Virus record (IMG/VR): IMGVR_UViG_3300042905_004424
DNA length: 64,000 nt
Origin: an uncultured virus (IMG/VR IMGVR_UViG_3300042905_004424)
Taxonomy: Duplodnaviria > Heunggongvirae > Uroviricota > Caudoviricetes
Reading direction: 5' to 3' (one strand)
Positions 1-63,483 of the stretch are shown here, one piece after another. The notes beneath the pieces are model-generated. The model worked only from the letters and a program-made list of their open reading frames with translations, did no database searches and was not told the origin of the DNA. Every line of letters begins with the position of its first letter. Within the stretch, counting starts at the first letter, position 1. A program made the translations under genes and the position numbers.

Positions 1-423
1 AACGAATTTAAAGACATATTTCAATTTCTAATTTCAGTTAGAAAACTTAAAACATATATTAGTATTGATGTTGAATTTCCATTGACTTGGAAAATCCCAA
101 AAAGATTTGTTCAAGAAGACAAGATTATAGAAAATCAAAAAGTTAACGATAACGCACGATTTTTTTCTTTTGTCAGTGAATTTAATGAAGTAATTCTTAA
201 TCAAACGGTAGAAAATATTAAAAATATTATTTCATATAATAAAGAAATTGAAATGAAAGAAAGACTTTTAAAACAAAAAATAGACGAACTTAAAAGAATT
301 TTTGAATCAGAAGATTTAGAACATTTACAAACTCTTAAATTTGAATTGCTAGAAGAAAAATTAAACGATGGAGAAGAAGATTTTAACGAAAGAAGAACAA
401 ACCATAAATTGGTTGAAGAGTGA
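1..423 (+). CDS. hypothetical coiled-coil protein, 5'-truncated by window edge
   Basis: Frame is open from base 1 (NEFKDIFQFLISVRKLKTY...) into the listed 82..423 ORF. Confidence 0.7.
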   Translation, partial: NEFKDIFQFLISVRKLKTYISIDVEFPLTWKIPKRFVQEDKIIENQKVNDNARFFSFVSEFNEVILNQTVENIKNIISYNKEIEMKERLLKQKIDELKRIFESEDLEHLQTLKFELLEEKLNDGEEDFNERRTNHKLVEE

Positions 424-565
424 ATTTGAAAAAGATAAGATTGAGTTAGAAAATCAAAAACAAAAATTTGCAGACTCAATTAAAAACTTAGATAAAAAAG
501 ACATAATCAAACCCATCGCAAAACTTACAATATGGCAGAAGATCAAGAAAGTGCTCCTAGCGTAA
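368..565 (+). CDS. hypothetical protein
   Basis: 65-aa ORF overlapping both neighbours in operon fashion. Confidence 0.6.
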   Translation: MEKKILTKEEQTINWLKSEFEKDKIELENQKQKFADSIKNLDKKDIIKPIAKLTIWQKIKKVLLA

Positions 566-882
566 TAGAAAATTTAGCGTTGGTGACAGATGCCATACAA
601 ACTATGTTCCCCGATGGAAAAATAATTTGTGTATACGAATTAAACGACCAAGACTTCAAAAAAGTCCAAGAAAATTTTAGAAAAATAGATAATCAACACA
701 AAAGATTTTCAATAGACATGTCAGGTTTAGAACACGTATTTATTCATGAGGATATAAATTTAACATTATTAACTCCTGATATTAATAATGTTGACAAAAA
801 ATCAAATAATAAAAGTATTTTATTTAAAATAAAAACAAAAATATCATCTTGGTTTAAAAGTGGTGGATCTTCGATAAAGTAA
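532..882 (+). CDS. hypothetical protein
   Basis: 116-aa ORF, composition typical of the window. Confidence 0.65.
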   Translation: MAEDQESAPSVIENLALVTDAIQTMFPDGKIICVYELNDQDFKKVQENFRKIDNQHKRFSIDMSGLEHVFIHEDINLTLLTPDINNVDKKSNNKSILFKIKTKISSWFKSGGSSIK

Positions 883-8568: not shown

Positions 8569-8865
8569 ATGAAAATTATAATAACTGAAGACCAAGTGGC
8601 GTTAATAAGAAGGTTAAGTGAGTTAGAAGAAATTCTTGATAAAATTATTAAGGTATTAAATGATGATATAAACGATAGTGGTCCGGGTTATAAACCTGAT
8701 AATTTTGGTGTTTATGAAAGGTGGGTGATGGATAGAGTCAAAAGAGAGTTTAAAAATGATAATCCAAAGATTGAATTTCCAAATCACGATTTTATGATGT
8801 TAATGTCGGGACAATTTAACAATAAAATTAGAAAAGGTTTTAATAAAGTTAAAAAGAGAAGATGA
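8569..8865 (+). CDS. hypothetical protein, MKIIITEDQ leader family
   Basis: Shared leader. Confidence 0.75.
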   Translation: MKIIITEDQVALIRRLSELEEILDKIIKVLNDDINDSGPGYKPDNFGVYERWVMDRVKREFKNDNPKIEFPNHDFMMLMSGQFNNKIRKGFNKVKKRR

Positions 8866-9449
8866 AAATAATATTAACAGAAAGACAACAGAACTTAATA
8901 ACGGAAAACTTAACAGATGAGAATCTTCGTAAGTTTTGTTATCAAATTTGGAATAAACAAAAAAAGATGGGAGAAGAGCCTAATCTTGATGATATGATTT
9001 ATGATATTACGGACATAAAAAAAAATACAAGGGAAGATTACGATACTATTAGACCAATTTGGTATGAATACAATGGAGGTTATGATAGATTATTTAAAAA
9101 ACTTAAAGATGAAATTGACACTAAAGAATATAAGTTAGTTGAGGCTGAATTTGATTTGGAAACTAAAATAAAGGTTGTCCATCTTGACATTGTAGGACAT
9201 TTTGTTGAAATTATGGTTGATGTTGATCCTCGTGGAACTATAGAATTTCATGGTTGGGATGAAGAAACTGAGGAAGAATACGTGGTAAACGACACAATAG
9301 ACGCTGCTTATCATGAGGCGTTACTTAATTATGAAGGTGCCGATTTTCAAGGAATGATTAGAAGTTCAGTATATGATTTATTTTATAATTTATTAGAAAA
9401 ATACGGAATTCCAATTGATGTGGATATTGACTTAAAAGAAATTTATTAA
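8862..9449 (+). CDS. hypothetical protein, MKIILTERQ leader family
   Basis: Shared leader; W(K/N)xQxKxG segment shared with 7030..7587. Confidence 0.75.
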   Translation: MKIILTERQQNLITENLTDENLRKFCYQIWNKQKKMGEEPNLDDMIYDITDIKKNTREDYDTIRPIWYEYNGGYDRLFKKLKDEIDTKEYKLVEAEFDLETKIKVVHLDIVGHFVEIMVDVDPRGTIEFHGWDEETEEEYVVNDTIDAAYHEALLNYEGADFQGMIRSSVYDLFYNLLEKYGIPIDVDIDLKEIY

Positions 9450-27406: not shown

Positions 27407-27564
27407 TAAACTAAAATCATAGTTTGCTCAATACGAGGATTTATTAACCACTAATCCCAATTGTATTCGTATTTATTAGTGAACTCAACCTGCCCGTGGA
27501 ATATGGGGGTTTCTTAAAAAGATTCTTCAAGAGAGTAAATAATTTTATTTTATTTATTTTTACT

Positions 27565-29433
27565 ATGAAGAATATATTGGTTGGACTTTTTGTCCTATTT
27601 TCATCTTTCTTATTTTCTCAATCATGTTCACATACCATACAACGAACCGACACTTGGGGCGATGGTTGGAACGGAGGAACTGTGGCCGTTTCCGTTAATG
27701 GAGTAACCGTTTTATCTAATTTAAGTTGCGCCGGATATGGACCTACTTCTTCTACATTTTCTGCAGCAGTGGGGGCAACAATACGAGTGTACCGCACGGC
27801 ATCAGGATCATATCCTTCTGAAATGCGTATACGAGTTATCAATGGAGCAGGATCTACCATAATCAATACCGTTCAACCACTTGCTGGAACCTCAACTTCA
27901 GGAGGTCATATAGTGGCGGGAAGTTGTGCATCAGTATCACCGGGACCTTGTACTAATACCTATTCGTATTTAACGGCTACAATGCCATCAACTCCCGGTT
28001 TTTTTTCAGTTGGAACATGCACTTTTCAAGGGGATTACAATACATTTAATAGTGTTGTTGCAGGTAGACAATACAGATCAACTTATAGTTTAGGTGGTTG
28101 GATAACAGTAAGACACACAACACCAGGAGGAACTGTGGTTACTTCAGGACCTTCTCCACTAACATGGACCGCTACTATATCAGGGACTTATTACGTTCAT
28201 TACAATACAAATTCAAGTTGTGGAACTGCTTCTTCTTGTGGGACAGATTATATTGAATGTTTAACTTGTACTGCACCACCACCCCCATCAAATGATTTAG
28301 TGTGTAATTCAACATCTATTACTTGTGGTCAGTCAATATCAGGGACTACTGTAAACGCAACTAACTCTGGAACGGGTGAAGGTGGATTTTGTTCTGTTAG
28401 TCAAACACAACCCGGTGTTTGGTATGTTATTCCAGGAAACGGACAAATTATGACGGCAAATCTTTGTGCTACCGCATGGGATAGTAAAATGTCTGTATTT
28501 TCAGGGGTAGGGTGCGGAAGTCTAACTTGTGTAGGGGGTAATGATGATTTTGGTCCTGCTTGTGGTAGTTCATCAGCCTCATATTCATGGTCTTCTGTGG
28601 TTGGAACAAATTACTATATATTAGTTCATGGGTATAGTACAAGTAGTAGTTTTTCTATTAATGTAAATTGTGTTGCCCCTCCAACACCAGGCCCATGCAT
28701 TAATACTATTTCGTATGGAACACAAAGTTTACCTGTATTTGGTGGAATATCATACACTACCGTACCTTGTCAGTTTGCTGGTGAATACTCAACTTGGAGT
28801 GGAGCCGTGGTAGGAACACCATATATTGCTATGACTACGGTTGCAACTGATTGGATAACAGTAAGAAGTGGAGCATATAATGGAACTGTTGTTGCTGTTG
28901 GATTAGGACCATTATCCTTTACTCCGACAAACAATAATACCTTATACATACACGTTAATACAAACTCACTATGTGGAACAGTAAGTGTATGTAGAGATGT
29001 TTCTGTAACTAGAATGTCTGCATTACCTATTGAATTGTTATCGTTTGAAGGTAAGAAACAAGTTAACTCAAATATGTTATATTGGTCAACAGCGTCTGAA
29101 CATAATAGTAGTCACTTTATTATTGAAAAGAGTGTGGATGGTTTTAAATGGAGTGATATTGGACAAGTACAATCTGCTGGTAACTCAACTCAAAAAATAG
29201 ATTATAGTTTAGAAGATAAAGATGTATCTCAAGTTATCAACTACTACAGATTACATCAATACGATATAGATGGTGTGGATGAGGTATTTGGACCAATAGC
29301 GATCAACAATAGAGATAGAATAAACATCATTGCTAAGAGAATTAATTTAGCGGGTCAAGAGGTTAATGAGAATGCAACCGGAATAATTATAGAAATTTAT
29401 GAGGACGGAAGTATAAAAAGAATTATAAGGTAA
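27565..29433 (+). CDS. secreted Cys/Ser/Thr-rich Bacteroidota-type surface protein with T9SS-like C-terminus
   Basis: Signal peptide MKNILVGLFVLFSSFLFSQ; DTWGDGWNG; internal duplication; LPIELLSFEG...WSTASE.N...F.IEKS.DG...YYRL.Q.D.DG Ig-like module; NLAGQEV tail. Confidence 0.8.
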   Translation: MKNILVGLFVLFSSFLFSQSCSHTIQRTDTWGDGWNGGTVAVSVNGVTVLSNLSCAGYGPTSSTFSAAVGATIRVYRTASGSYPSEMRIRVINGAGSTIINTVQPLAGTSTSGGHIVAGSCASVSPGPCTNTYSYLTATMPSTPGFFSVGTCTFQGDYNTFNSVVAGRQYRSTYSLGGWITVRHTTPGGTVVTSGPSPLTWTATISGTYYVHYNTNSSCGTASSCGTDYIECLTCTAPPPPSNDLVCNSTSITCGQSISGTTVNATNSGTGEGGFCSVSQTQPGVWYVIPGNGQIMTANLCATAWDSKMSVFSGVGCGSLTCVGGNDDFGPACGSSSASYSWSSVVGTNYYILVHGYSTSSSFSINVNCVAPPTPGPCINTISYGTQSLPVFGGISYTTVPCQFAGEYSTWSGAVVGTPYIAMTTVATDWITVRSGAYNGTVVAVGLGPLSFTPTNNNTLYIHVNTNSLCGTVSVCRDVSVTRMSALPIELLSFEGKKQVNSNMLYWSTASEHNSSHFIIEKSVDGFKWSDIGQVQSAGNSTQKIDYSLEDKDVSQVINYYRLHQYDIDGVDEVFGPIAINNRDRINIIAKRINLAGQEVNENATGIIIEIYEDGSIKRIIR

Positions 29434-29496: not shown

Positions 29497-29532
29497 GTTT
29501 TTATTAGAAAAATTTTATTATCTTTGTCTTAT

Positions 29533-29878: not shown

Positions 29879-30100
29879 ATGAAAGAAAGAGAAGTAATTT
29901 ACGGAGTGTGTGATAAGACTGGATCTTGTGATTCCTACTTTGGGTTTTTCAAAAATGAAAAAGATGCTGAACACGAGGTTGAAGTTCAAGCTAATAGACT
30001 CAAGGAAGACTTGGGTATGATGGATATTGACATTCAAACGGACCGAGCATTATTCGATGGTAAATTAGTAATAGTAATTCATTCATATGTGTTAAGATGA
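29879..30100 (+). CDS. hypothetical protein
   Basis: 73-aa ORF coupled (ATGA) to next gene. Confidence 0.65.
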   Translation: MKEREVIYGVCDKTGSCDSYFGFFKNEKDAEHEVEVQANRLKEDLGMMDIDIQTDRALFDGKLVIVIHSYVLR

Positions 30101-30783
30101 TAAACCCAACAGGAAAAAAATTAGAAAAAATTATCTTTAAATTGTTTGACGATGCAAGTCAAGGGGTTGATAGATATAATCATAACGATAGTTTGTGGTT
30201 AATCTTTACCAATGAGATGAAATGGGTTGTTGAATACACTAAAGACCAAACTCTATGGTATAACTATAACTTCTTTAAAGATGAGATGGAGTTAATTGGT
30301 TTGGATTGTGTTGAAGATAAAGACCTTATTCAAAAATGGTTTGAGTCAAGATTTTTGGGAATGCCAAAGGTTGAAGAGGCTTTTGACCCATTTTTCGATC
30401 AAGACCAATATGTTGAAGACGTTATTCAAAATGGAGTGAAAGATATCTCTAGTGTATTATATAAAGAGTTACTCAGCGTTGAAGACACCATTCAAAATGG
30501 GGTGAAACACACCGAGGAGGGATTGAGGCCTGATGACTCTGACGTTGAAGACACCATTCAAAATGGGGTGAAACTTACCAAAAGTACAATAATGAGTCAA
30601 GATTCTAAAATTGAAAACACCATTCAAAATGGGGTGAAAGAGACTATTGGCACACTACGGCGTACTGCTAAGTGGGGTGTTGATGACATCATCCAAAATG
30701 GTGTAAAAGAAACTCATGACGATTGTTCAAATAACATTGCAAGAGTTGAAGGTATAGTTAGAATAGGTGAAAAATTAAATTAA
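30097..30783 (+). CDS. protein with C-terminal VEDTIQNGVKxT repeat/variable-spacer array
   Basis: N-terminal ~100-aa domain, then 5-6 units of 12 conserved plus 10-11 unique residues. Confidence 0.8.
   Translation: MINPTGKKLEKIIFKLFDDASQGVDRYNHNDSLWLIFTNEMKWVVEYTKDQTLWYNYNFFKDEMELIGLDCVEDKDLIQKWFESRFLGMPKVEEAFDPFFDQDQYVEDVIQNGVKDISSVLYKELLSVEDTIQNGVKHTEEGLRPDDSDVEDTIQNGVKLTKSTIMSQDSKIENTIQNGVKETIGTLRRTAKWGVDDIIQNGVKETHDDCSNNIARVEGIVRIGEKLN
30412..30780 (+). repeat. in-frame CRISPR-like array: 36-nt repeats, 30/33-nt unique spacers
   Basis: Repeats start at 30412, 30478, 30544, 30610, 30679, 30745 (last degenerate); best copy GTTGAAGACACCATTCAAAATGGGGTGAAACACACC. Confidence 0.85.
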
Positions 30784-30831
30784 TAATAGAAGTAGTAAAC
30801 ATTATTAGAAAATAATATGTATATTTGTGGA

Positions 30832-31008
30832 ATGGAAAAAGAAGATAAAATAGAAATTAATGTAAAAAATGGTGACAATTTTCATATGGATAAAGATGTG
30901 TATATTCAATGGTTAAAAGCATTTATGGTACTAAATCTTGAAAAAGAGAATTATGATGAGTGTGCCAAGTTAAGGGATGAAATAAAATCTTTAGGTGAAG
31001 ATTTTTAA
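30832..31008 (+). CDS. small UVR-domain protein
   Basis: ENYDECAKLRDEIKSL matches UvrB/UvrC motif; ATG 4 nt after TATATTTG. Confidence 0.7.
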   Translation: MEKEDKIEINVKNGDNFHMDKDVYIQWLKAFMVLNLEKENYDECAKLRDEIKSLGEDF

Positions 31009-31022
31009 AATAATAAATTGTT

Positions 31023-31328
31023 ATGAAAACAATAGAAACTAAATTTGGAACATATGTAGATATGGAAACAGAAACAAGCACAAAATTAACTGGTGATAAA
31101 ATCACGGTATTTGTAGAAAGATTAAAAAAAATCGGTATTGATGTAAAACTATCAGGAAACTTTCCTTGGGTTTATATTGATGAGATCTGTGGTAAAAGAG
31201 TTACTGAAAAGTTTGAAGGGAATCACGGGTTTACATTAATATTTTTACCAGGTAGAAACGATAGTCCACCATCTGAATTTACTGATATTACAGAGATATT
31301 CAAACTAATAAGAAAATACGCAAAATGA
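31023..31328 (+). CDS. hypothetical phage protein
   Basis: RLKKIGIDVKLSGNFPWVY...HGFT. Confidence 0.7.
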   Translation: MKTIETKFGTYVDMETETSTKLTGDKITVFVERLKKIGIDVKLSGNFPWVYIDEICGKRVTEKFEGNHGFTLIFLPGRNDSPPSEFTDITEIFKLIRKYAK

Positions 31329-31849
31329 ATTTAGACAAACTAACAATGGACGAACTTATTTCATTAAGAAATGAAATTCAAGGAAAAATACATTCCTATG
31401 AAGATGGGTATTTGTATATCTGTTCTGTTCGTCAGTTTGGTAGTGTATGGGAAGAAAAACCAAGTAGTTTATATGGTTTAAAAGAACTTTGTGATTCATA
31501 TTATGGTGACAATGGTATTGTTGATGTTTATACCAACAATCCAAATTTAGAATTTCCTGAAATGGAGTTTCAAAATTATGGTGACGTTATGTTTATTAAA
31601 TCAGAAGATGATTACCGTGACTGGGTTAAATACAACAAAGAAAAAAACTTTATTGATGATGTAACACAACGACTTGATGAGTGGGATGAAAGTAAAAATT
31701 TACCATTTAAATATCGCCCTTCTTTTGCGCCAATTTGGACAAGAGAAGATCTTAATGAATGGGTTACAGGGTTTGAAAGTAAGACATGGGATTTTACTGA
31801 ACCAAGATCTATGAAGGTAAAATATTCTGAAGAAGATGGTGAAGATTAA
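31325..31849 (+). CDS. hypothetical protein
   Basis: 174-aa ORF in operon. Confidence 0.7.
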   Translation: MNLDKLTMDELISLRNEIQGKIHSYEDGYLYICSVRQFGSVWEEKPSSLYGLKELCDSYYGDNGIVDVYTNNPNLEFPEMEFQNYGDVMFIKSEDDYRDWVKYNKEKNFIDDVTQRLDEWDESKNLPFKYRPSFAPIWTREDLNEWVTGFESKTWDFTEPRSMKVKYSEEDGED

Positions 31850-31862
31850 AAAATAAAAAATT

Positions 31863-32273
31863 ATGACAAAAGTAAAAATCTATCTAGATGATGTTCGTAC
31901 ACCGGTAGATCCAAGTTGGGTGGTTGTTCGTTCTTATGATGAATTTGTTAGTAAGATAAATGAAATTGGTTTAGAGAACATTGAACTAATTTCATTGGAT
32001 CACGATTTGGGTGATAGTGCAATGAGAGAATGGCACTACGGCGTTGTAAAAAACTACACCATCAATTACGATAATATAACAGAAAAAACTGGTATGGATT
32101 GCACCAAGTGGTTAGTGAATCAATGGTTAGATGGTAAACATATTGTTGAAGTTGTGGTTCATTCAGCAAATGCGGTGGGTAGTGGAAACATGATGGGTTA
32201 CATCAACAATTACCGACACTTGAATAGAATGGAACAAAATTGTGTAAGAGTTAAAATTGAACATACAGTATAA
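31863..32273 (+). CDS. cyclic-phosphate-processing receiver-like domain protein
   Basis: IYLDDVRTP, ISLDHDLG, TGMDCTKWL, VHSANAVG. Confidence 0.82.
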   Translation: MTKVKIYLDDVRTPVDPSWVVVRSYDEFVSKINEIGLENIELISLDHDLGDSAMREWHYGVVKNYTINYDNITEKTGMDCTKWLVNQWLDGKHIVEVVVHSANAVGSGNMMGYINNYRHLNRMEQNCVRVKIEHTV

Positions 32274-32283
32274 AAATAAAATT

Positions 32284-32544
32284 ATGGAATTAGAAAAATT
32301 TGAACAAGCAAAAAAAGTTAAAGAAAACCTTGAAAGGTTAAAAACACGGAAACATAAATTGGAATCCGCACTTAAATCTTGTAGTTTGGCGGTTAAGATT
32401 AATTATACGTATGGAGGTAAATTCCGAACGCCAGGTGAAGTGGGATTATATGATAAAGAGATTATAAAAGAAATGATGATCAAAGAACTTGAAAAGTTGG
32501 ATGAAGAAATAAATTTAGTTAAAGAAGAATTTGAAAAAGTATAA
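32284..32544 (+). CDS. hypothetical coiled-coil protein
   Basis: Likely start MELEKFEQ. Confidence 0.65.
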   Translation: MELEKFEQAKKVKENLERLKTRKHKLESALKSCSLAVKINYTYGGKFRTPGEVGLYDKEIIKEMMIKELEKLDEEINLVKEEFEKV

Positions 32545-32547
32545 GAA

Positions 32548-33681
32548 ATGGAAAATTTAAATAGTGTATGTTATGTTGGTGCAATCGGAGAGGTTAAGCC
32601 AATAGAAGGGGCAGATAACATAGAACTTGTTATGGTTAATGGTTGGAATGCCATAACTAAAAAAGGAGAATATAAAGTTGATGATTTGGTTGTTGTTGCG
32701 ACCACCGATGCGGTTATACCTGTTGAGTTATCCGACTTAATTGGTGTAACTGGTTACTTAAGAAAGGGTCAGAGAGTTAGAACTGTTAAACTTCGTGGAG
32801 TTTACTCAGAGTGTTTAATCATATCTTTAAAATATACATTTAAATCAGAAATATCTATCAATGGTTTTGTTGATGGACAAGATATGATGGGTTTACTTAA
32901 TGTCACTAAATACGAACCACCAGTTAAAATGGTCCAGTTAAGTGGGGGTAGAAAATTCAAATACCACCAAAACCCTAACTTCCATGTTTACTACAAGTTT
33001 CCCAACTTAAAGAATGTACCTGAAATGTTTAACGAGGAAGACATAGTTACTTTTACTCGTAAACTTCACGGAACAAATGCTCGTTATGGTATCGTTAAAA
33101 AGAAAAGATTATCCTTGTGGGATTATGTAAGAAAGTTATTTGGAAACAAATGGGCTAACTACGAATATGTTTATGGATCTCACAACGTAGAGAAAGGTTC
33201 TGACTCTCAAGGGTTTTACAAATCAGATGTATGGAAAACAATCGCAGATAATTACAAAATAAAAGATAAACTATGGGATTATGTTAAGACATATGGTAGT
33301 CCTGACTATTTGGGTGATGGGTTAATCATCTATGGTGAGATATATGGTCATGGTATACAAAAAAATTATGATTATGGTTTAACTGATGTTAAATTTGCTG
33401 GTTTTGATGTTGAGTTAAATGGTAATTACCGACCTTATTACGATGAAAAGAACGTTTTCAAATCTTTGGGATTACAAAGAGTTGAGGTTCTTTATTTGGG
33501 GACTTGGTCTAAAGAAAAACAAGATAAATACGTATTCAATAACAATATAGAGGGAACCAAAGTTCCACACGAAGGTGTTGTTGTTAAATCTGTTACTGGT
33601 GATAGACACAAAGTAGGTAAAGTGATCAACCCTGATTATAGTATATTCTGTGAAAAAAATAATGTAGGTGACTCCCATTGA
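32548..33681 (+). CDS. RNA ligase, DRB0094-like (N-terminal OB-like domain plus nucleotidyltransferase)
   Basis: PIEGADNIE, VRTVKLRGVYSE, KLHGTN (motif I), YGEIYG, FDV, EGVVV, KVINPDY. Confidence 0.9.
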   Translation: MENLNSVCYVGAIGEVKPIEGADNIELVMVNGWNAITKKGEYKVDDLVVVATTDAVIPVELSDLIGVTGYLRKGQRVRTVKLRGVYSECLIISLKYTFKSEISINGFVDGQDMMGLLNVTKYEPPVKMVQLSGGRKFKYHQNPNFHVYYKFPNLKNVPEMFNEEDIVTFTRKLHGTNARYGIVKKKRLSLWDYVRKLFGNKWANYEYVYGSHNVEKGSDSQGFYKSDVWKTIADNYKIKDKLWDYVKTYGSPDYLGDGLIIYGEIYGHGIQKNYDYGLTDVKFAGFDVELNGNYRPYYDEKNVFKSLGLQRVEVLYLGTWSKEKQDKYVFNNNIEGTKVPHEGVVVKSVTGDRHKVGKVINPDYSIFCEKNNVGDSH

Positions 33682-33694
33682 TGGAGTCACTTTT
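33668..33694 (+). terminator. intrinsic terminator
   Basis: GTGACTCC-CATTGAT-GGAGTCAC plus TTTT. Confidence 0.75.
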
Positions 33695-33738
33695 ATTACT
33701 TACTATTAAATTAAAAAAAATTAATACGTATTAAGATA

Positions 33739-33939
33739 ATGGAAAATAAAAAAAACACCCCTAAATTAATTTTAAACTCTGAAGAACATGAACTTATTGG
33801 GTTTTATATATCCGAACTTGGATTTTTAATGATGTCAATATGTTCACAATCAGGTAAACGAACTAACTATAACTTGGGTGAACACAACACAGAACAAAAT
33901 GTTTTTATAGATCTAATTAAAAAACTTAACTATAAATAA
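33739..33939 (+). CDS. hypothetical protein
   Basis: 66-aa ORF. Confidence 0.55.
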   Translation: MENKKNTPKLILNSEEHELIGFYISELGFLMMSICSQSGKRTNYNLGEHNTEQNVFIDLIKKLNYK

Positions 33940-33981
33940 ATTGAATTGATTAGTTCACTTTTTTAATTACATTTAAATAAA

Positions 33982-34176
33982 ATGAAACAAGATTTAAACA
34001 AATTTGCATTCTTTTCAAAAAACTTTTTGTGGTATTCCATAATGTTAGTGATTGAGAATGATTATAATCCACTTAATTGGTGGTTATTTAGTGGGTTTTT
34101 CCCTATAGTAATTACCATATTTTTTGAATTATATATACTTGGAACATCATTAAACGAAACAGAAACAGAAACATAA
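33982..34176 (+). CDS. small membrane protein
   Basis: Two hydrophobic stretches around NPLNW. Confidence 0.6.
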   Translation: MKQDLNKFAFFSKNFLWYSIMLVIENDYNPLNWWLFSGFFPIVITIFFELYILGTSLNETETET

Positions 34177-34196
34177 AATTAAAAAAATATTATACA

Positions 34197-35180
34197 ATGA
34201 GAGAAAACGAAATTGATGATTATATTGAAGAGTTAAAAATGATTGAAGAAATGGATAATATAGAAATGACAAGAAATAGATTTATTAAAAACGATGACAC
34301 AAAGACACCAACTAATTCACCAACATGTTGGGGAACTTTACAAGACGAAGAATTTGCCCCCGCATTTACATCCGTCCCAAAAGTTCCGGCTGGAATTTAT
34401 GAAATCATTTACAATAGACAATTAAATTGTAACACAATAAAAAAACAACCATTTAAAACAGATGAGTTATACCAATTACCTTCATATGAGATCCAAGATA
34501 TCCTCAAGGATATCCAAAATTTTTGGGATCGTCGTGACAAATATAGAGAATATAATTTTGTTCATAAGCGTGGGATTCTAATGTATGGTGAACCAGGATG
34601 TGGTAAGTCAGGAATCATACAGTTAATTTCAAAACAACTAATTGAAAATGATGGGATTATTCTAAACATTAAAGATCATGACGATGTTGAATACTTTATT
34701 GATTTCATTGCAACATTTAGAAAAATTGAAACCAACAGACCTTTAATTGTTTTGTTGGAAGATATTGATTCAATTGCCGGCGAAAATAATCATGCGACAA
34801 GTAAGTTATTAAACATTCTTGACGGTGTGAAACAAATTGAAGACGTTGTTTATATTGCAACAACAAACTATCCTGAGAAACTACAAGACCGTATCACAAA
34901 CAGACCATCTCGTTTTGATAGACGATACAAAGTGGAACTTCCAAACGAAGAGATTAGAAACGCTTATATCCGTCACAAATTAACAGAAGATGATTTGAAA
35001 AATGTTAATATTGATGAATGGGTAAAAAGAACTGAAGGAATGTCTCTTTCACACTTGAAAGAAGTTGTAATTTCAACTATAGTTATGGGAAGAGAATTTG
35101 AGGAAGTGATGGATAACCTCGAAGGATTAAAAAAAGCACCAACAATTAAAGAATTTAAAAAAGTAGGATTTGGAAAATGA
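34197..35180 (+). CDS. AAA+ ATPase (BCS1-like)
   Basis: KRGILMYGEPGCGKS, LLEDID, LLNILDG, ATTNYPE, RPSRFD. Confidence 0.92.
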   Translation: MRENEIDDYIEELKMIEEMDNIEMTRNRFIKNDDTKTPTNSPTCWGTLQDEEFAPAFTSVPKVPAGIYEIIYNRQLNCNTIKKQPFKTDELYQLPSYEIQDILKDIQNFWDRRDKYREYNFVHKRGILMYGEPGCGKSGIIQLISKQLIENDGIILNIKDHDDVEYFIDFIATFRKIETNRPLIVLLEDIDSIAGENNHATSKLLNILDGVKQIEDVVYIATTNYPEKLQDRITNRPSRFDRRYKVELPNEEIRNAYIRHKLTEDDLKNVNIDEWVKRTEGMSLSHLKEVVISTIVMGREFEEVMDNLEGLKKAPTIKEFKKVGFGK

Positions 35181-35329
35181 AAAAAGGAATTTATTATATA
35201 CCGTTATTTTTAATATTATTATTTATAATGGTCTGGACATTTTATGTTAGTAATTATTTAGGGTTTGTAATGTCGACAATATCAATGTTATTATTAGGTG
35301 AAGTTTATTATTTAAGATTTATAAAATAA
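35177..35329 (+). CDS. small two-helix membrane protein (not in ORF track)
   Basis: 50-aa hydrophobic ORF with ATGA overlap to the ATPase. Confidence 0.5.
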   Translation: MKKGIYYIPLFLILLFIMVWTFYVSNYLGFVMSTISMLLLGEVYYLRFIK

Positions 35330-35342
35330 TTTATAAAAATTT

Positions 35343-35367
35343 CCCCATCTCAAAAAGGTGGGGTTTT
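35343..35367 (+). terminator. intrinsic terminator
   Basis: CCCCATCT-CAAAA-AGGTGGGG plus TTTT. Confidence 0.8.
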
Positions 35368-35380
35368 ATATTTATAGAAT

Positions 35381-35899
35381 ATGAAAACATTAATAGAAAG
35401 AATTGTCAGAGAATATCTTTTGGAGGAAAGAAAATTTCCTAAACAAAAAGGTAGTGAAGTCTATGATAAAATGTTATATAATATAATATCCACATACCAT
35501 CAGTGGTTTGATCGACATGGGGATAATTCGTATAAGGAAAATATTGATTTGTTTTATGAAAAAAATAATTCAGATAACGATTATAGGATTGGTGTTAGTG
35601 ATAAGTTATTGATACCGATAATTAAAAAAGATATTGGTAAGATTATTGATAGCTTTAAAACGCACAATCCTTGTAATAAAAGAATCATATTTACAAAAAG
35701 AATGGTTAATAATGAAGATGAGGCATACTTTGATGTTATTGAATTTCTCATACAAAAAGATAGTAATGAATTAAAAATTGTTAGTTCTGCTTTTTCTGAT
35801 GACGGTAACTTTTTATATTTTGGTGTTAGACCAAGAAGTAAAAAAGAAAATTTAAAAGAAAATTCATGTAAAAGTGGGGATATAGTTGTGGAATTGTAA
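35381..35899 (+). CDS. leader-bearing hypothetical protein
   Basis: TATTTAT 5 nt upstream; MKTLIERIVREYLLEE. Confidence 0.7.
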   Translation: MKTLIERIVREYLLEERKFPKQKGSEVYDKMLYNIISTYHQWFDRHGDNSYKENIDLFYEKNNSDNDYRIGVSDKLLIPIIKKDIGKIIDSFKTHNPCNKRIIFTKRMVNNEDEAYFDVIEFLIQKDSNELKIVSSAFSDDGNFLYFGVRPRSKKENLKENSCKSGDIVVEL

Positions 35900-35919
35900 A
35901 AAAGTATTATCTTTGTAAG

Positions 35920-36141
35920 ACAATTGATTGTTATTGGTTCAATCATTAAAAAATACCAATCGTAGGGTGTCTGGCGTAATCCGACACAGGTTGAAAATCC
36001 CACCCCTAGGTGAAATTGATCCCCACTGAAATATGTGGGGATTTTTTTTTAAGAGACCCCATCTTAATTGATGGGCTTTAGGGCCGTTATCCGTTAGGGT
36101 AACGATTTAAAGGGGGGAATTCGCTACTCCCCCTTTTTTTT
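35920..36141 (+). ncRNA. candidate structured non-coding RNA(s)
   Basis: TATCTTTG at 35908, no ORF, elevated GC, at least six hairpins, two terminator-like ends. Confidence 0.55.
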
Positions 36142-36164
36142 ATTTAACTAAGTATTTATCATAT

Positions 36165-36611
36165 ATGAAAATAATAATTTCAGAACGTCAACAAAAGTTA
36201 ATTAAAGAAAATTCTGTTAAGGGATCTTTAATTGATATGATTAAAGAAGATGGTTGGAAAAGTGTTTACGGATTGGTTGGGGGGATTGATAATCTTAAAA
36301 AACTTGTTGGAATTGAATCACCAATAGATTTTCTTAATTTATTTAATGATTTGGATGTTATTAATAGTGAAGAAAAACCTAATTTGACTTTATTTAGATA
36401 TGAAATAGGAAATAATCTAATGGTTTACGATGATGAATTTGATTTTGTTTACATCAATTATAGTATAATTTGGTCATTTTTAGAAAAAGTTTTTGGATTT
36501 AACTACTCTGAAATACAGGAAGTCACACAGGAATGGTTGTCTGAGGCCTACGATTTAAGGGGAGTCACAACAGATGAGGTAGATGAGGAGGATGATGAGT
36601 TGGTTGGATGA
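36165..36611 (+). CDS. MKIIISERQ leader protein ending in a repeat-spacer-repeat unit
   Basis: TATTTAT at 36153; domain resembles N-terminus of 30097..30783; stop codon lies in the second repeat. Confidence 0.8.
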   Translation: MKIIISERQQKLIKENSVKGSLIDMIKEDGWKSVYGLVGGIDNLKKLVGIESPIDFLNLFNDLDVINSEEKPNLTLFRYEIGNNLMVYDDEFDFVYINYSIIWSFLEKVFGFNYSEIQEVTQEWLSEAYDLRGVTTDEVDEEDDELVG

Positions 36612-36638
36612 GGTCTACAATTTAAGGGGAATTATATA
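36536..36638 (+). repeat. CRISPR-like mini-array (36-nt repeat, 31-nt spacer, degenerate repeat)
   Basis: GTTGTCTGAGGCCTACGATTTAAGGGGAGTCACAAC (36536-36571), spacer 36572-36602, GTTGGATGAGGTCTACAATTTAAGGGGAATTATATA (36603-36638). Confidence 0.75.
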
Positions 36639-36679
36639 ATTCCCTTTTTTTATTTAATTCTTTTACTTATCTTTGTGTT

Positions 36680-36760
36680 ATGTTAATTATGACCATATTG
36701 TTTATTCTTTTAATCCTATGTATTGGGGTTTGGGGTAAACACGGAAAACACTTTAAGTGA
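36680..36760 (+). CDS. 26-aa single-TM peptide (not in ORF track)
   Basis: MLIMTILFILLILCIGVWGKHGKHFK*; ATG 4 nt after TATCTTTG; stop overlaps next ATG. Confidence 0.5.
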   Translation: MLIMTILFILLILCIGVWGKHGKHFK

Positions 36761-37359
36761 TGAAAATAATACTACTTGATAATGATGGTGTGATTTGTTT
36801 ATCCAATAATTGGGGTGGACGAGCAAAGAAATGGGCAAATTTTCATAAGGATAATCCTGATGTTGAATTTACAAATCGTCCTATTGATTGTAGGTTTGAT
36901 AACTTTGATGAGAAGGCAATTAAGGTCCTTAATGAAATACTTGAAGAAACCGGTGCTGAAATAGTTGTAAGTTCAGATTGGAGATACAATGCAACACTTG
37001 AGGAACTTGGCGATTACTACATAAGTCAAGGAATCATCAAACGACCAATTGCAGTAACGGATATGTTCAAAGACATATTCCCAAGAGAATGGAATGCGTT
37101 TAGGTTTCGTGCTGATTTAGAAATAGAACGAAGTATGGAGATCGGACACTGGTTAGAGAACCATCCCGAAGTTACGCATTGGGTTGCAATTGATGACCTC
37201 AACATGAGTATTGAGTTTTTATCTAAAAACTTTTCACATAGTAAAGATGATGATAAAAACCCCGGTCTATCTAATTTTGTTCTAACACCAAAAGCAAGTG
37301 AGGGAATCAAACAAAGTGGTATTAAAGAAAAAATATTAAAGTTTTTGAAAGATGAGTAG
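36760..37359 (+). CDS. HAD-superfamily phosphatase, Swiss-Army-Knife RNA-repair type
   Basis: LLDNDGV, IVVSSDWR, RSMEIGHWL, WVAIDD. Confidence 0.85.
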   Translation: MKIILLDNDGVICLSNNWGGRAKKWANFHKDNPDVEFTNRPIDCRFDNFDEKAIKVLNEILEETGAEIVVSSDWRYNATLEELGDYYISQGIIKRPIAVTDMFKDIFPREWNAFRFRADLEIERSMEIGHWLENHPEVTHWVAIDDLNMSIEFLSKNFSHSKDDDKNPGLSNFVLTPKASEGIKQSGIKEKILKFLKDE

Positions 37360-48845: not shown

Positions 48846-49858
48846 AAACAAAAAAACACGCACGTATGAAACAAAATCAAACAGCCGAAACACATTCAGA
48901 TGAAACCTCAGGTGGTGCATCATTTGATAATACAACTACTGCATCCGCAGGAATAGAAACAGGAGATGAAAATGCCTCAATTGGTATTGAAGCGTCCGCT
49001 AAAACTGGAACAGAGGCATCAGTAGATGGTGGATTAGATGGTAATAACGTTTATGTTGAAGCCAGTTATTCAGATACAACTGAAGTTCATGTAACAGTAG
49101 AAGGTCAGGCTAACGCAGAAGGATTCGGAGTTAATGGTACTGTAGACGCTTACGCTAAAACAGGAAATGAGGCAAGTTTAGAAGTAAGGGCAGGTGATGA
49201 AGGAGTGGTTGCAAATGGAAGTGTATCGGCAGGAAGTTCAGTTGGTGTCGATGGTGAAGGAACTTTAGATTTAAGAGAAGGTTCAGTAACTGCAGGTGCC
49301 GGTGTATCAGTTGGAGAACAAGTTGGTGTTGGTGGTGGTGGTGAAGCTACTTATGTAGATGGTGTCGCAACTGTCGGAGTTAGTGGTGAAGTGGCAGTTT
49401 TACTTGGTGTTGATGTTGATCTAAGCGTTAGTGTTGATACGAATCAAATCGCTGAAGACGCAAGACTGGCGGCTGAACAATCAGAACGTGCTGCGGCAGA
49501 AGCGAAAGAATTGGCTGAATCAACACAAAGAGAATCTGAACGACTTGCAAAAATAGCCCAAGAAGAAACTGAAAGAAAGGCGAGAGAAGCTCAAGAAGAA
49601 CTTGACAGACAATCCAAAGCTGCTAAAGAAGAAAGTGATAGATTGGCAAGAATCGCACAGGAAGAACTTGACAGACAAGCAAGAGCAGCACAAGAAGAAC
49701 TTGACAGACAATCGAGAGCGGCACAAGATGAACTTAATAGACAAGCGAGAGCGGCACAAGATGAACTTGATAGACAGGCAAGAGACGCTCAAGATGCGTT
49801 AAATAGAGCCGCAGAAGACGCTAAAAAATCAAAATGGAATCCAAAGAATTGGTTTTAA
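48842..49858 (+). CDS. Gly/Ala/Val beta-rich protein with 11-residue coiled-coil repeats
   Basis: (G/A)xV/A strands followed by AQ(E/D)ELDRQARA repeats; ends WNPKNWF. Confidence 0.75.
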   Translation: MKTKKHARMKQNQTAETHSDETSGGASFDNTTTASAGIETGDENASIGIEASAKTGTEASVDGGLDGNNVYVEASYSDTTEVHVTVEGQANAEGFGVNGTVDAYAKTGNEASLEVRAGDEGVVANGSVSAGSSVGVDGEGTLDLREGSVTAGAGVSVGEQVGVGGGGEATYVDGVATVGVSGEVAVLLGVDVDLSVSVDTNQIAEDARLAAEQSERAAAEAKELAESTQRESERLAKIAQEETERKAREAQEELDRQSKAAKEESDRLARIAQEELDRQARAAQEELDRQSRAAQDELNRQARAAQDELDRQARDAQDALNRAAEDAKKSKWNPKNWF

Positions 49859-58450: not shown

Positions 58451-61249
58451 ATGCCAATTAAACTAACAATATCACAACAACCTAACGGAGTTTTATTCTC
58501 AGGATCAGGAACACTTAATACAACCTCACTTCAAAATTTACCATCATGGGGATTAAACATGGGAACTGGAATTTTTTTTAGAGGCCCAAGTAAAATTGTT
58601 GGTGGAGCCGTTGGTAATATAAAGTTACATTCAAACTTACTACAAAATTTAGTGCCAATAAGTACATTATCAAGTAGTATATATGGTACTAGTGGTGTTA
58701 TTAATTTAACGGGGGGGGCTATGAATTATTTTTTCTCAATAGGTAACCCTTGGAATGATAGTAATTCTTTTCCAAACGCCCTATCTTATTCTGATAATTA
58801 CATTTCAAATCAACCTTTTAATTTTTCATATCTTATACCTAATCAAACTTATACAAGTTTAGGTATAGTTCCACAAAATAATACTTATAGTTGGACAAAT
58901 CCGCAGTTAGGTGTTTCTGACAACGTACAGGTTGTGGTATTACAACCACAAAACGCGAATGTTATAATTACTATACAACAAGTTTTAAATACTGTTAACG
59001 TAAGTGTTGTTGGAACAATAAACCCTAACGGATTAGTACCTAATGGTGTTTTTACTTATAATCCTGGTGGTTATTTAAAAGGTTCAAACCCAAATAAAAG
59101 GGTTTTTATGTTTCCTGATAACGCTCAGATGCAAACATGGCAGATAACATCATACCCTACACAACCCTTTTCACTCAATCAAGGCATTGTTGCTGCCAAT
59201 ATTCAGCCATCACAACCACCATACTTTCTTATTGATAATTCTAGTTTTGGAATTAGTTCAAATGCGACAAGCGGTTACATAAATACATCAATGGTTTATA
59301 ATGATCCTGGAGCAACGATTCAAACCTTAGGTTTCATTACAGGAACTTACATATGGATGGCGCCCAACAACGTATTCCAAATGAATGTTTTACCGCCACC
59401 ATCACCTACACCAACTGTAACACCAACTAAGACTACAACACCAACAGTTACACCAACAAAAACAGTTACACCAACTGTTACTAAAACACCAACTGTAACA
59501 CCAACAAATACCGCAACACCAACAAATACCGCAACACCAACTGTAACTCCAACAATTACGCCAACAAATACTGCAACACCAACTGTCACACCGACACTTA
59601 CTCTTACGCCAACAGTTACAAATACAGTTACACCGACAATAACCGCAACTCAAACTGAAACACCAACACCAACTGTTACACCTACCAATACTTTAACACC
59701 AACAGTTACGGCTACAAATACGCCGACATTAACTAAAACACCATCACCTACACCAACAACAACACCAACTAACACTCCAAGTAACACACCAAACATATCA
59801 TCAAACTGTTGTTCAAATCCTGAAAATCTTCCACAAGTTAATCAAACAGTTGTTAGAAACTTCACAAACGTAACTGCTACAGGTTCTGGAAACATTGGAG
59901 TAGGTCCTAATGCTATTAATACGTATTACCAACAATATATAGGATCATTTACAATGTTGAGTGATATTATTTTAGGAACAAATGGTGGGTTTACTTATAC
60001 TTTAACTTTTTCAAATCAGATTCAAGGGATAAGATTTTTAATGTATGGAATGAATGTTAGTCCGGTATGTTCATTTACATTCACAACAGACAGTGGACCT
60101 ATAACTATTACCACATGTCAAAGCGGATGTTTAAGTGTTTCTGGAAATGTTATTTCGACAAGTACGCCATGTAATCTTCTTGCAGGGGCTGGTTATTTTG
60201 AAATAATACCTACCTCTCCTTTCACAATATTAACTATAACAGGACCAGGTGATTCGGGGGGTACGGGTCTTCAACTATGTTATTTAGATGCAATAATTCC
60301 TTCACCAACACCGACACCAACAAATACCTTAACACCAACACCAACTGTTACCGTAAGTGTTACACCAAGTATTGCTGCGTCACCAACAGCGACACCTACA
60401 AACACGGCAACACCAACAGTTACACCAACAGTTACACCAACGATTACTGAAACCCCAACACCTACGGTTACTCCAACAATTACGGAAACACCGACCGAAA
60501 CGCCAACAAATACACCAACATTAACACCAACAAATACGCCAACTGTTACTGTAACGCCAACTGTTACGGCAACTAACACGCAAACACCAACTGTAACACC
60601 GACTGAAACACCAACAAATACACCAACAGTAACGTCAACAGTAACACCAACTGTCACACCTACTGCAACTCCAACATTAACACCACAGTCAACAGTTACT
60701 CCAACTTTAACTTCAACACCAACTCTTACACCTACGGTAACTACAACGCCATCAGTAACGCCTACATTAACGGCAACACCAACAGCGACTGTAACACCGA
60801 CTATTTCAATTACACCGACGTTGACACCAACACCAACAACTTCACCAGCACCATCAAATGTGACAATATTACTCAACACATTAATTGTTGATGGTTCAAT
60901 TAACATGTTAGTTACAATTAATTATAACAATACAATTCCATTTGCAACTATTGTAAGTTTCAACCTGAACTTGGTTTATACTAATGGAACAACGTATACA
61001 GTTCCGTTTACAATCAACATGCCGGCAAATACACCACAAGGATTTGGATCGTTTAATATTCCAGGAAATGCGGCACAAATATCACAAGGACTTACAAATA
61101 TTAGTAATGTTGTGATTACCAATTATTCAGGAACCGTTATTCCAAATATTAATATTACGGTAAATCCTACGCCAACACCAACACCTACAGCGACATTAAC
61201 ACCATTCCCAACAGTAACACCTTCACCGGCTAACTGTTGTATAATTTAA
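58451..61249 (+). CDS. large Pro/Thr-rich mucin-like, probably virion surface protein
   Basis: Beta-rich domains separated by long TPT(V/N/P)TPT linkers; TATTTAT at 58427; ends TPSPANCC. Confidence 0.8.
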
Positions 61250-61268
61250 TTTAAAAGATAAAAAAAAT

Positions 61269-61300
61269 GATGGCCCGATAAAACAATTTGTCGGGTCATT
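61269..61300 (+). terminator. hairpin, probable terminator
   Basis: GATGGCCCGATAAA...TTTGTCGGGTCATT inverted repeat immediately before TATTTAT at 61302. Confidence 0.55.
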
Positions 61301-61323
61301 GTATTTATATATAAAAATAGATT

Positions 61324-63483
61324 ATGCCAATTACAATCAATATTTACCAACAACCTAACGGACTTCAATTCCAAGGATCAGGAACGCTAAACTTAGACTC
61401 ATTTATTGGGAAAACACAAGGAAATGCGGCTAACGTAAATCAAGGTCTTAGATTCAGATCTAATGCTTTAAATAATTTAGCTTTAAATAGATTATCATGG
61501 ATAGGTCTTAATAATCCTAACACTAATTATAGGTTTTACCCTAATTTATTTACGACAATACCAAATTTTGGAACCTCCTCAACAGATTATACTACCGCTA
61601 TAAATACATTTGCAACAGGAGGTCAGTTTTTTATGGTGGGACAAGATGCGACTATAGGGCAATTAACCGTTCCACAGTCTTATGTTTCAGGTTTAAATTT
61701 TAGTTGGGGTTTTTTATTACCAAGTTTAACCTATGCTGGTTTAGGAATGTCTCCACAAACAATTACACGAAGTTGGACTGGATCTACTGGTGTGGTTGAG
61801 ACTCTAACAATTATCGTCAACCCATTACCAACGTCAAATGTTAATATAAACGTTATTGAAACTAATGGAAATGTTTATGTTGAAGTTGTTGGAAATATAG
61901 GGACTGGATATGTAACGGCATGTGGACTTGGATTTGGACCTGGAAATTCAATATTCTCATCACAAAGATGGGTACAATTTGGGTCTAGTAGTGTTGGTTT
62001 TTGTAAAGTGCAAATAAATTCTTTCCCACCAAGTTTTGGGAATACCTCAAGAACCGCTAATATTGGATCTCAGTTCACTCCTTTTAGAGTTGACAATCAA
62101 GGGGCTTACTTTGATCAAAATGCTTTAACTGATGATATTAATACAAGTATAACTTTTACTGGAACAACAATTGCCGGTATGGGTTTAAATACTGGAGTAT
62201 ATAATTGGTATGGACCCGATAATAATATCCAAATGAATATTATTGGACCAACACCAACACCAACGGTTACGGCAACCAACACGCAAACACCAACCGTAAC
62301 ACCAACAAATACCGTTACACCCACAATTACGCCAACAGTAACGCCAACAGTTACGGAGACACCAACACCAACACCTACACCTACAGTTACGCCAACAGTT
62401 ACAACTACGGTTACTATTACACCAACTGAGACACCAACTAATACGCCAACACTTACGCCAACACTTACAGAAACACCTACCCCAACAGTTACGGCAACTG
62501 TAACAGAAACTCCTACACCAACCGCAACAGAAACACCTACAGCAACACCTACAGCAACTGTAACACAATCTGTCACACCTACTATTACACCAACAACTAC
62601 GGTTACTATTACGCCAACTGAGACACCAACTAATACACCAACACTTACACCAACAATAAGTATTACACCTAGTTTTGCGTCTTCACCAACACCTACACCT
62701 ACAATTACGGAAACACCTACTGTTACTCCTACTGTTACTCCTACGGTTACTGAAACACCTACAAATACTCCGACAGTAACTCCAACAAATACAACAACAC
62801 CAACACAAACAGTTACGGAAACACCAACTCAAACACCAACAGGAACTCCATCGGTTACACCAACAGTTACGGAGACACCAACTCAAACACCAACAGGAAC
62901 TCCATCGGTTACACCAACTATTACACCAACACTTACAGAAACACCATCGGTTACACCTACTAATACGATTACGCCTACGGCAACACAAACACTTACACCT
63001 ACTGTTACTCAAACACAAACTCAAACTCCTACACCGACAGCAACTGTTACCCCATCTAAATCTCCAGCACCTGCCACTTTAAATGCAAATTTTAATGTAA
63101 ATGTGGTTGATGGATCAATATCAGTAATAACAACTGTTTCTTACAATTTAGGAATTCCAGTTCCAACTATAGTTTACTTCACAGTAAATATTATTTTAAC
63201 AAATGGTGTAATATTTACAGTCCCTGAAAGTATTACGATCCCTGCATCCACATTACAAGGATCTGTAACTACTACACTTCCAGGAAATGCGGCACAAGTA
63301 TCTAACTTAAGTTATGTGAATAATATAACAATTACAAACTATGCTGGAGTTGTTATACCAAATATTATAATTAGCATCAACCCAACACCAACACCTACGC
63401 CAACAGCAACATTAACACCACTACCAACTATAACACCTTCACCGGCTAATTGTTGTCCAATACTTGCAATACCAGGATCTTAA
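61324..63483 (+). CDS. Pro/Thr-rich mucin-like protein, paralog of 58451..61249
   Basis: Shared N-terminus MPI...QQPNG..F.GSGTLN and shared C-terminal domain (VDGSI...PGNAAQ.S...TPSPANCC). Confidence 0.8.

Follow-up and report, generated by a model that had tools for sequence, protein, structure and literature searches.

Arrays of 36-nucleotide units and short inserts at the ends of two small phage genes

The stretch of DNA analysed here, hereafter the window, comprises 64,000 nucleotides (nt) of an uncultured virus (Caudoviricetes; IMG/VR IMGVR_UViG_3300042905_004424) and is an AT-rich piece of a large phage genome (GC content 30.6%). It contains two small genes, A and B, in which a constant domain runs into 36-nt units separated by inserts of approximately 30 nt. 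We describe the geometry and polarity of these arrays in the window and in viral relatives, among them a third family that we term C, the probable bacterial origin of some inserts in B- and C-type arrays and the coding constraint on array A. Which enzyme may insert the pieces, and what the arrays may serve for, we infer from these observations.

Genes A and B and their arrays

Both genes are open reading frames (ORFs) on the + strand, encoding 228 and 148 amino acids (aa), respectively. Their features are the following.

29519..29526, + strand: TATCTTTG, a TAnnTTTG-type promoter-like motif, 3' of a terminator-like hairpin and upstream of the gene A operon (read from the sequence)
30097..30783, + strand: gene A, 228 aa, with a constant domain followed by a translated array (ORF)
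30097..30411, + strand: A constant domain, a helix, four strands and two helices (AlphaFold, alignment)
30412..30447, + strand: A unit 1, VEDVIQNGVKDI (repeat comparison)
30448..30477, + strand: A cassette 1, 30 nt, SSVLYKELLS
30478..30513, + strand: A unit 2, the canonical repeat, VEDTIQNGVKHT (repeat comparison)
30514..30543, + strand: A cassette 2, 30 nt, EEGLRPDDSD
30544..30579, + strand: A unit 3 (repeat comparison)
30580..30609, + strand: A cassette 3, 30 nt, KSTIMSQDSK
30610..30645, + strand: A unit 4, IENTIQNGVKET (repeat comparison)
30646..30678, + strand: A cassette 4, 33 nt, IGTLRRTAKWG
30679..30714, + strand: A unit 5, VDDIIQNGVKET (repeat comparison)
30715..30744, + strand: A cassette 5, 30 nt, HDDCSNNIAR
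30745..30780, + strand: A unit 6, terminal and degenerate, VEGIVRIGEKLN, with the stop codon directly after it (read from the sequence)
36165..36611, + strand: gene B, 148 aa (ORF)
36536..36571, + strand: B unit 1, of the form GTTG...CACAAC, encoding the end of the last helix (LSEAYDLRGVTT)
36572..36602, + strand: B insert, 31 nt, acidic tail, frame-shifting
36603..36638, + strand: B unit 2, terminal and degenerate, with the ORF stop inside it at 36609-36611; its own frame reads ...LDEVYNLRGII and a stop
36624..36647, + strand: terminator-like hairpin overlapping B unit 2

The constant part of gene A spans 105 residues. Units 1-5 are 36 nt long, lie at spacings of 66, 66, 66 and 69 nt, and are 76-100% identical to the reference copy; their core motif is found in five copies in the array and in seven matches in the whole window, where 0.57 would be expected. 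The units encode V-E-D-T-I-Q-N-G-V-K-x-T, ending in Thr in four of five cases, and the C terminus encoded by the degenerate unit 6 is kept in most relatives. The array of gene B in the window consists of only two copies, with 87% identity across 30 nt and a spacing of 67 nt. Its 31-nt insert shifts the frame, and the gene B ORF therefore stops within unit 2. In the relative P0135, the second, terminal unit is read in frame and ends in ...LSEVYDLRGII. The acidic tail of gene B is also present in some close relatives, and others carry different tails. A previous sequence-only reading of the window had reported GTTG-initiated 36-nt units followed by approximately 30 variable nt in both genes, which holds for A, with its five units and degenerate sixth, but only partly for B, with two units, one insert and a second unit out of frame. 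The promoter-like TATCTTTG upstream of the A operon and a TATTTAT upstream of gene B, also pointed out there, are both visible in the sequence; TAnnTTTG is presumably the Bacteroidota promoter motif.

Neither gene belongs to a Pfam or PHROG family, and relatives are numerous, with 2417 for gene A at E<=1e-3 and 648 for gene B. The A proteins step in length by approximately 22 residues and share 10-residue cassettes in varying combinations, 229 of 373 inserts being exactly 30 nt long. Our first impression that A cassettes are GC-rich was not upheld (37% versus 32%). Gene A and the next small ORF (30097-31022) form a present/absent block, with position 30096 joined directly to 31023 in contigs of three RNA-library runs, and at locus L038 the neighbours of gene A are present without it. 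A second A-type array, in opposite orientation and with cassettes common to other arrays, lies upstream of the A gene in L020/L021 (approximately 80-670, minus strand). RNA-library contigs span part of gene A and are uninformative on transcription, ends or processing.

Among B loci, 24 of 41 contain two or more units downstream of the domain, up to six. The units of B relatives are perfect or near-perfect copies of the 36-nt repeat. Their inserts measure 28-33 nt in 34 of 37 unique cases (mode 30-31), and only 15 of the 37 are divisible by three. Insert lengths in B thus ignore the frame, and the end of the B ORF depends on where a stop codon falls in it. One complete genome of 296 kilobases (kb), G002, contains at least nine B-type genes, each ending in the repeat and at least six carrying one or two inserts. 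Between these paralogues, silent sites are 91% alike in the repeat versus 74% in the upstream gene, which hints that the DNA or RNA sequence of the repeat itself may be kept. Some of the B-type genes in G002 are fused to longer N-terminal parts, with the B domain at the C-terminal end; L082 and L093, at approximately 30.8-31.9 kb and 240.2-241.7 kb, encode such proteins, which measure 365 and 507 aa. An N-terminal 'MKIIITE.Q' start is common to many small ORFs with and without arrays, at 8853-9446 in the window and at many places in G002, G003 and G005, a large paralogous superfamily.

Array A behaves as coding sequence. Its frame is open through every unit in 37 of 37 viral loci, which contain 4-29 units and encode proteins of 183-810 aa. 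In 276 unique A units the three codon positions carry 1.13, 1.48 and 0.73 bits of information, the third position being least conserved. Cassette variants show 82 synonymous versus 54 non-synonymous changes, where 21% synonymous changes would be expected under neutrality; the rough ratio of non-synonymous to synonymous rates (dN/dS) is near 0.2 for these non-independent pairs. There are no in-frame stops in 187 cassettes compared with 67-140 of 187 in the other frames, and the base composition of the cassettes displays codon periodicity. The open frame, the variation at third positions, the low number of non-synonymous changes and the lack of in-frame stops together indicate, as far as sequences can tell, that gene A is a real protein, the tail of which is a string of motif-plus-cassette units. 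Each repeat of this tail combines a 12-residue motif with a 10-residue cassette and is predicted to be disordered.

We compared the constant domains of the two genes. Directly, no significant similarity was found between A and B by BLASTP (E 15) or hhalign (E 0.26); the register of the earlier by-eye alignment is identical to that of hhalign. Family C provides a connection. Its gene (L223:9959-10693, minus strand, record G003) contains eight near-perfect 36-nt units, VEEHYKVGVTST, and seven 30-nt inserts, all in frame, and its domain matches that of B with 97.8% probability (E 1e-12). A bridging profile built from nine diverse superfamily members with and without arrays recovered B at E 1.5e-24 and the A domain at E 1.4e-4 (52% probability, 82 columns), and when an A profile was run against 4505 ORFs, its top non-A match was a B-superfamily ORF (E 0.042). 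AlphaFold models of A and B have the same order of elements, a helix, four strands and two helices, as the sequence-only reading had proposed to compare, and in both the last helix runs into unit 1. The mean predicted local distance difference test score (pLDDT) is 74.6 for the 118-residue A model, with block means of 80-92 for residues 11-90 and values <50 for the part encoded by unit 1, and 88.6 for B. No solved fold was matched by either domain in Foldseek at E<=0.001, VIA gave best Z values of 4.8 and 3.3, the sole weak row common to both domains in these fold searches was 4uaq_A, and the ESM Atlas returned no named look-alike. The proposal of one family with one architecture is thus supported indirectly, by the bridging profile, by family C and by the predicted structures, but not by direct comparison. 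Profiles and models leave us fairly confident that the two constant domains are homologous, probably as remote homologues linked by family C. Three subfamilies contain arrays, and the position relative to the domain is the same in each. A constant domain followed by repeat-delimited variable peptide cassettes, as suggested previously, describes A and C, which stay in frame, but not B with its frame-ignoring 28-33-nt inserts.

Growth of the arrays and origin of the inserts

The arrays are polar. Loci L042 and L045 differ solely in the first insert, and the same is true for L052 and L055. In 120 A proteins, cassettes on the gene side are common to 18-22 proteins on average versus 30-38 at the 3' end, and the distribution of 42 singleton cassettes is skewed, with 18 in the gene-side fifth and three in the last fifth of the array. 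The identity of units to the consensus is highest near the gene and falls towards the 3' side, where the last units are degenerate. Most A cassettes show no relationship to one another, their spread of pairwise identities (up to 17/30) equalling that of a codon-shuffled control.

The inserts of five arrays (three B/C, two A) were searched against samples of 361-401 genomes from the family of a genome titled Flavobacterium aerium. Among the 17 B/C inserts of relatives tested, five match Flavobacteriaceae-family chromosomal genes, with the matches ending at the insert borders. The genes concerned are an lpdA-like oxidoreductase gene (27/30 and 26/30, the three mismatches of the closer copy all falling on third codon positions), purC (in four genomes), a DUF6090 gene (in three genomes), a peptidase S9 gene (27/30) and serS; matches to the same orthologue in several genomes are non-independent. 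Three of these inserts are in sense and two in antisense orientation, and the piece of the peptidase S9 gene, located in family C, is translated in a frame other than that of its source gene. Matches that start within 1 nt of the insert start make up 9 of 24 for B/C versus 2 of 60 for A, with 4.5% expected by chance (binomial p 6e-7; Fisher p 1.3e-4). No exact lpdA-like source was found at genus level in searches covering 1 and 2 genomes. Matches to inserts outside arrays were absent from G002, G003, G005 and the window (970 kb together), an apparent self-match in G002 being the array of a second paralogue, and two arrays compared with 50,697 cultured phage records returned noise only (E>=0.4).

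The sequence-only reading had also raised the question of co-occurring Cas1 or Cas2. Neither these nor Cas13b gave a match in 5 phage records, 4 of them complete; two bacterial genomes, serving as a control, did yield Cas13b in that search. Likewise, Pfam shows no cas gene in the window, and cas models had no match among 41 of the 45 G002 ORFs that are 450 aa or longer. When 16 positions of the window B unit were used as a probe, at least 15 multi-copy arrays were uncovered, all in records with Bacteroidota titles and all with the 36+30 layout. The Bacteroidota Cas13b arrays that were fetched have 36-nt repeats and mostly 30-nt spacers, and Cas13b adjoins five of eight bacterial arrays as judged from neighbouring large ORFs. 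Window B unit 1 has GTTG and CAAC ends, whereas A and most B units end in CACC. Folding z values are -0.13 for A, +1.75 for the B consensus, +0.29 for window B and -1.8 for family C compared with -0.9 to -3.3 for five bacterial repeats, three of which contain a clear internal hairpin; the phage repeats do not form a stem plus hairpin. G316, one of the genomes matched by inserts, contains a Cas9-like gene, Cas1 and an array with 47-nt repeats and 30-nt spacers, the repeat of which ends in CACAAC.

Surroundings of the two genes

Of the called ORFs in the window, 91 of 99 lie on one strand. Pfam matches comprise DnaJ, two DNA methylases, a glutamine-synthetase-like gene, thymidylate synthase and RNA-repair-type genes; neither tRNAs nor Rfam families were detected across the window. 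Complete relatives of the window phage are 292-318 kb long, and the region is present in lake-water metagenomes, with 14 DNA runs carrying at least 94% of the sampled words. The carriers are probably uncultured lake phages of approximately 300 kb with Flavobacteriaceae-like bacteria as hosts.

Genes of the RNA-repair type lie between and beside A and B (31863-32273, 32548-33681 and 36757-37359); they encode a cyclic-phosphate receiver domain, an RNA ligase and the HAD domain known from 'Swiss army knife' repair proteins. Linkage of the arrays to such RNA-repair genes is confined to close relatives, and because of this limit we dropped it as an argument. The 260-nt gap upstream of gene B harbours two strong terminator-like hairpins and more stem-loops (35940-36140), without a tRNA or Rfam match. 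An intergenic module composed of a T-run, TTATCTTTG and TTAT is repeated at 29498-29532 and 36647-36681, in both cases 3' of terminator hairpins, and the module with TTATCTTTG is probably a reused terminator-promoter cassette. A 645-aa ORF without a Pfam family (27496-29433) has a tail that presumably resembles a Bacteroidota secretion sorting domain. Further repeats are found in two large ORFs of 932 and 719 aa with Thr-Pro-rich short tandem repeats of 12-66-nt period (58451-63483), and at 49547-49794, where a repeat with 33/66/99-nt periodicity codes for a charged stretch that resembles a coiled coil (AQEELDRQAR...) and has a relative in G005.

Known systems, rival explanations and a possible origin of the arrays

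CRISPR (clustered regularly interspaced short palindromic repeat) arrays in general resemble those of A and B relatives in their fixed 36-nt direct repeats and unique inserts of narrow length (window B has two units only), in growth at one end and in a degenerate last repeat. They differ in that no Cas1, Cas2 or Cas13b was found in the five phage records and no cas gene among the 41 large ORFs of G002 or the Pfam matches of the window, and in that the arrays of A and C stay in frame under coding constraint and B unit 1 is coding. Multi-core peptide precursors combine conserved flanks with hypervariable cores, and like these, or like diversity-generating retroelements, A has a constant part with many short variable cassettes between conserved motifs; unlike them, it varies by gain and loss of whole cassettes rather than by point mutagenesis, and Pfam revealed neither a maturation enzyme nor a reverse transcriptase in the vicinity of A. 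In off-site ('neo-CRISPR') integration, described in laboratory bacteria, Cas1-Cas2 inserts spacers at sites that resemble a leader-repeat junction. Such an event would make a new repeat from any 36 base pairs (bp) at the site, here the end of a gene, and then an array, but we know of no description of it as a lasting, multi-copy feature of phage genes over thousands of variants.

Type VI-B (Cas13b) arrays of Bacteroidota share with the phage arrays 36-nt repeats, spacers of approximately 30 nt, a GTTG start and a CA(A/C)C end, growth at the side where transcription enters, a degenerate last repeat and a position directly 3' of a co-oriented gene. In Flavobacterium columnare, according to PMC8092290, the repeats of the II-C and VI-B arrays both measure 36 bp, the VI-B array is filled in trans, and spacers are acquired from phage DNA as well as host DNA; a partial origin of spacers from the host genome may be a further likeness. 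On the phage side, in contrast, cas13b is absent from all records searched, the repeat lacks the hairpin, its core differs, the first copy of the repeat lies in coding sequence and array A is read as protein. Viral mini-arrays, single repeat units and RNA anti-CRISPRs (PMC11656645, PMC10651486) likewise occur in phages as arrays or lone repeats without cas genes, comparable to the 1-5 inserts in B. The known mini-arrays have repeats identical to those of the host and spacers that target related viruses (PMC11656645). The phage arrays described here differ in that no viral target was found, their inserts match bacterial genes, they sit inside genes, and no matching host repeat was seen among the at least 15 bacterial arrays listed. 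In the literature, searched without supplements, viral mini-arrays, single repeat units and adaptation in trans are known, and we found nothing on arrays inside phage ORFs. No paper on the suggested undescribed system was found; its parts resemble known CRISPR biology.

The explanation that we favour, with a confidence that is evenly balanced, is that Cas1-Cas2 of the host writes pieces of host DNA at repeat-like gene ends of one phage protein superfamily. The last 36 bp of the final helix of the domain would act as a CRISPR-type repeat. Pieces of approximately 30 bp, at least in part from the bacterial chromosome, would enter at the gene-side edge of this unit, and the unit would be duplicated; arrays would therefore grow outward from the gene, and the original gene end would stay as the degenerate last unit. 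Since the phages lack Cas1, Cas2 and Cas13b in the records searched, the inserting enzyme is most likely the Cas1-Cas2 of the host, of the II-C kind that fills the 36-bp-repeat Cas13b arrays of F. columnare in trans. In B, the array would trail the protein, the frame would not be kept and an insert would alter the C-terminal tail only; insertion in any frame would be tolerated, the protein being complete by that point. In A and C, units would survive only if they are in frame and free of stops, and they would be translated and then held by purifying selection. A and B themselves probably form one large, fast-diversifying superfamily of small lake-phage proteins.

Several observations weigh against this explanation. 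The insert matches are 84-93% identical and never 100%, from a sample of species only. BLAST E-values are inflated in such AT-rich searches, and the A arrays gave 60 matches of similar E that ignore cassette borders. No common flanking motif (protospacer-adjacent motif, PAM) is evident by eye at the five source sites. One B 'insert', common to two paralogues, is only 23 nt long. Beyond the 16 imposed positions, the repeats of the bacterial arrays agree with the phage repeat at 4-8 of 20 bases, and none of the at least 15 arrays listed has the phage repeat core. For A, 0 of 26 cassettes tested had a source in the Flavobacteriaceae-family genome samples, and A could therefore be an ordinary repeat protein. 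Distant A relatives have linkers of up to 40 residues, and cassettes on the 3' side are conserved across proteins that are 40-50% identical, a pattern reminiscent of an old protein repeat. Relatives also differ in how their A cassettes are ordered, which requires recombination besides growth at one end.

In one rival view, the genes encode ordinary tandem-repeat proteins, whose units expand and are shuffled by slippage and recombination and whose linkers drift, the likeness to CRISPR being coincidental. Selection at the protein level on motif and cassettes, the shuffled cassette order, the long conserved linkers of distant A proteins and the lack of a source for A cassettes all suit this view. 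It leaves unexplained the perfect 36-nt B units with their unrelated, frame-ignoring 28-33-nt inserts, the border-exact matches of B/C inserts to bacterial genes and the lack of similarity among most cassettes, and we regard it as rather improbable. A working guide array carried by the phage, with transcripts cut into guides for a host Cas13b or II-C Cas9 and directed against host genes or rival phages, would account for the 36+30 geometry, for the GTTG...CACAAC ends of window B, which are like those of Cas13b repeats and like the end of the II-C repeat in G316, for inserts that match host genes and for the silent-site likeness of the repeat (91% versus 74% upstream). It sits poorly with phage repeats that lack the hairpin of bacterial Cas13b repeats (see the z values above) and differ from bacterial repeats in their core, with the mixed orientation of the sourced inserts (3 sense, 2 antisense), with the lack of any match in related phages (970 kb) or cultured phages and with A units that vary at silent sites. 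We think it unlikely.

The arrays might instead be decoys, with repeat-like phage sites absorbing the spacer integration of the host, or with repeat RNAs jamming an effector in the manner of RNA anti-CRISPRs. At least nine B-type sites in one 296-kb genome and the conservation of the repeat at silent sites point this way, and so would a transfer of host DNA into the phage instead of the reverse. Direct evidence for decoys is nil, the repeat structure differs from that of host repeats and selection on A cassettes would be unexplained, making this account quite improbable. We assign a similarly low probability to a phage-encoded, unrecognised enzyme that would write cassettes as a diversity generator for this protein family. 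Arrays in three subfamilies at a constant domain position, the absence of known Cas proteins from the phage records searched and the many phage ORFs without a known family would be in line with such an enzyme, but a candidate did not emerge, and both the 36/30 layout and the unit ends match the products of Bacteroidota Cas1-Cas2.

Should insertion by host Cas1-Cas2 be correct, spacer integration would reach beyond the arrays of the host and leave lasting, multi-copy records of host DNA in phage genes, some of which would become protein. This would bear on the birth of new CRISPR arrays, on how phages cope with, or exploit, the adaptation machinery of their hosts, and on how captured DNA might naturally give rise to a diversity of peptides. 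The inserts could serve as a practical host marker because they carry fragments of host genes, and array finders would overlook such arrays or score them as false positives. Flavobacterium jumbophages are now available in culture (PMC13573597). A more far-reaching version, which we put forward tentatively and consider doubtful, has an adaptation enzyme of a bacterial CRISPR system write captured host DNA, in 30-bp pieces, into the last helix of a phage protein family; each piece would be read in the frame in which it lands, and those with an open frame would be selected as new 10-residue peptides. The translated peptidase S9 piece in family C would be an instance of this. If true, the arrays would be a natural system that converts DNA capture into protein diversity.

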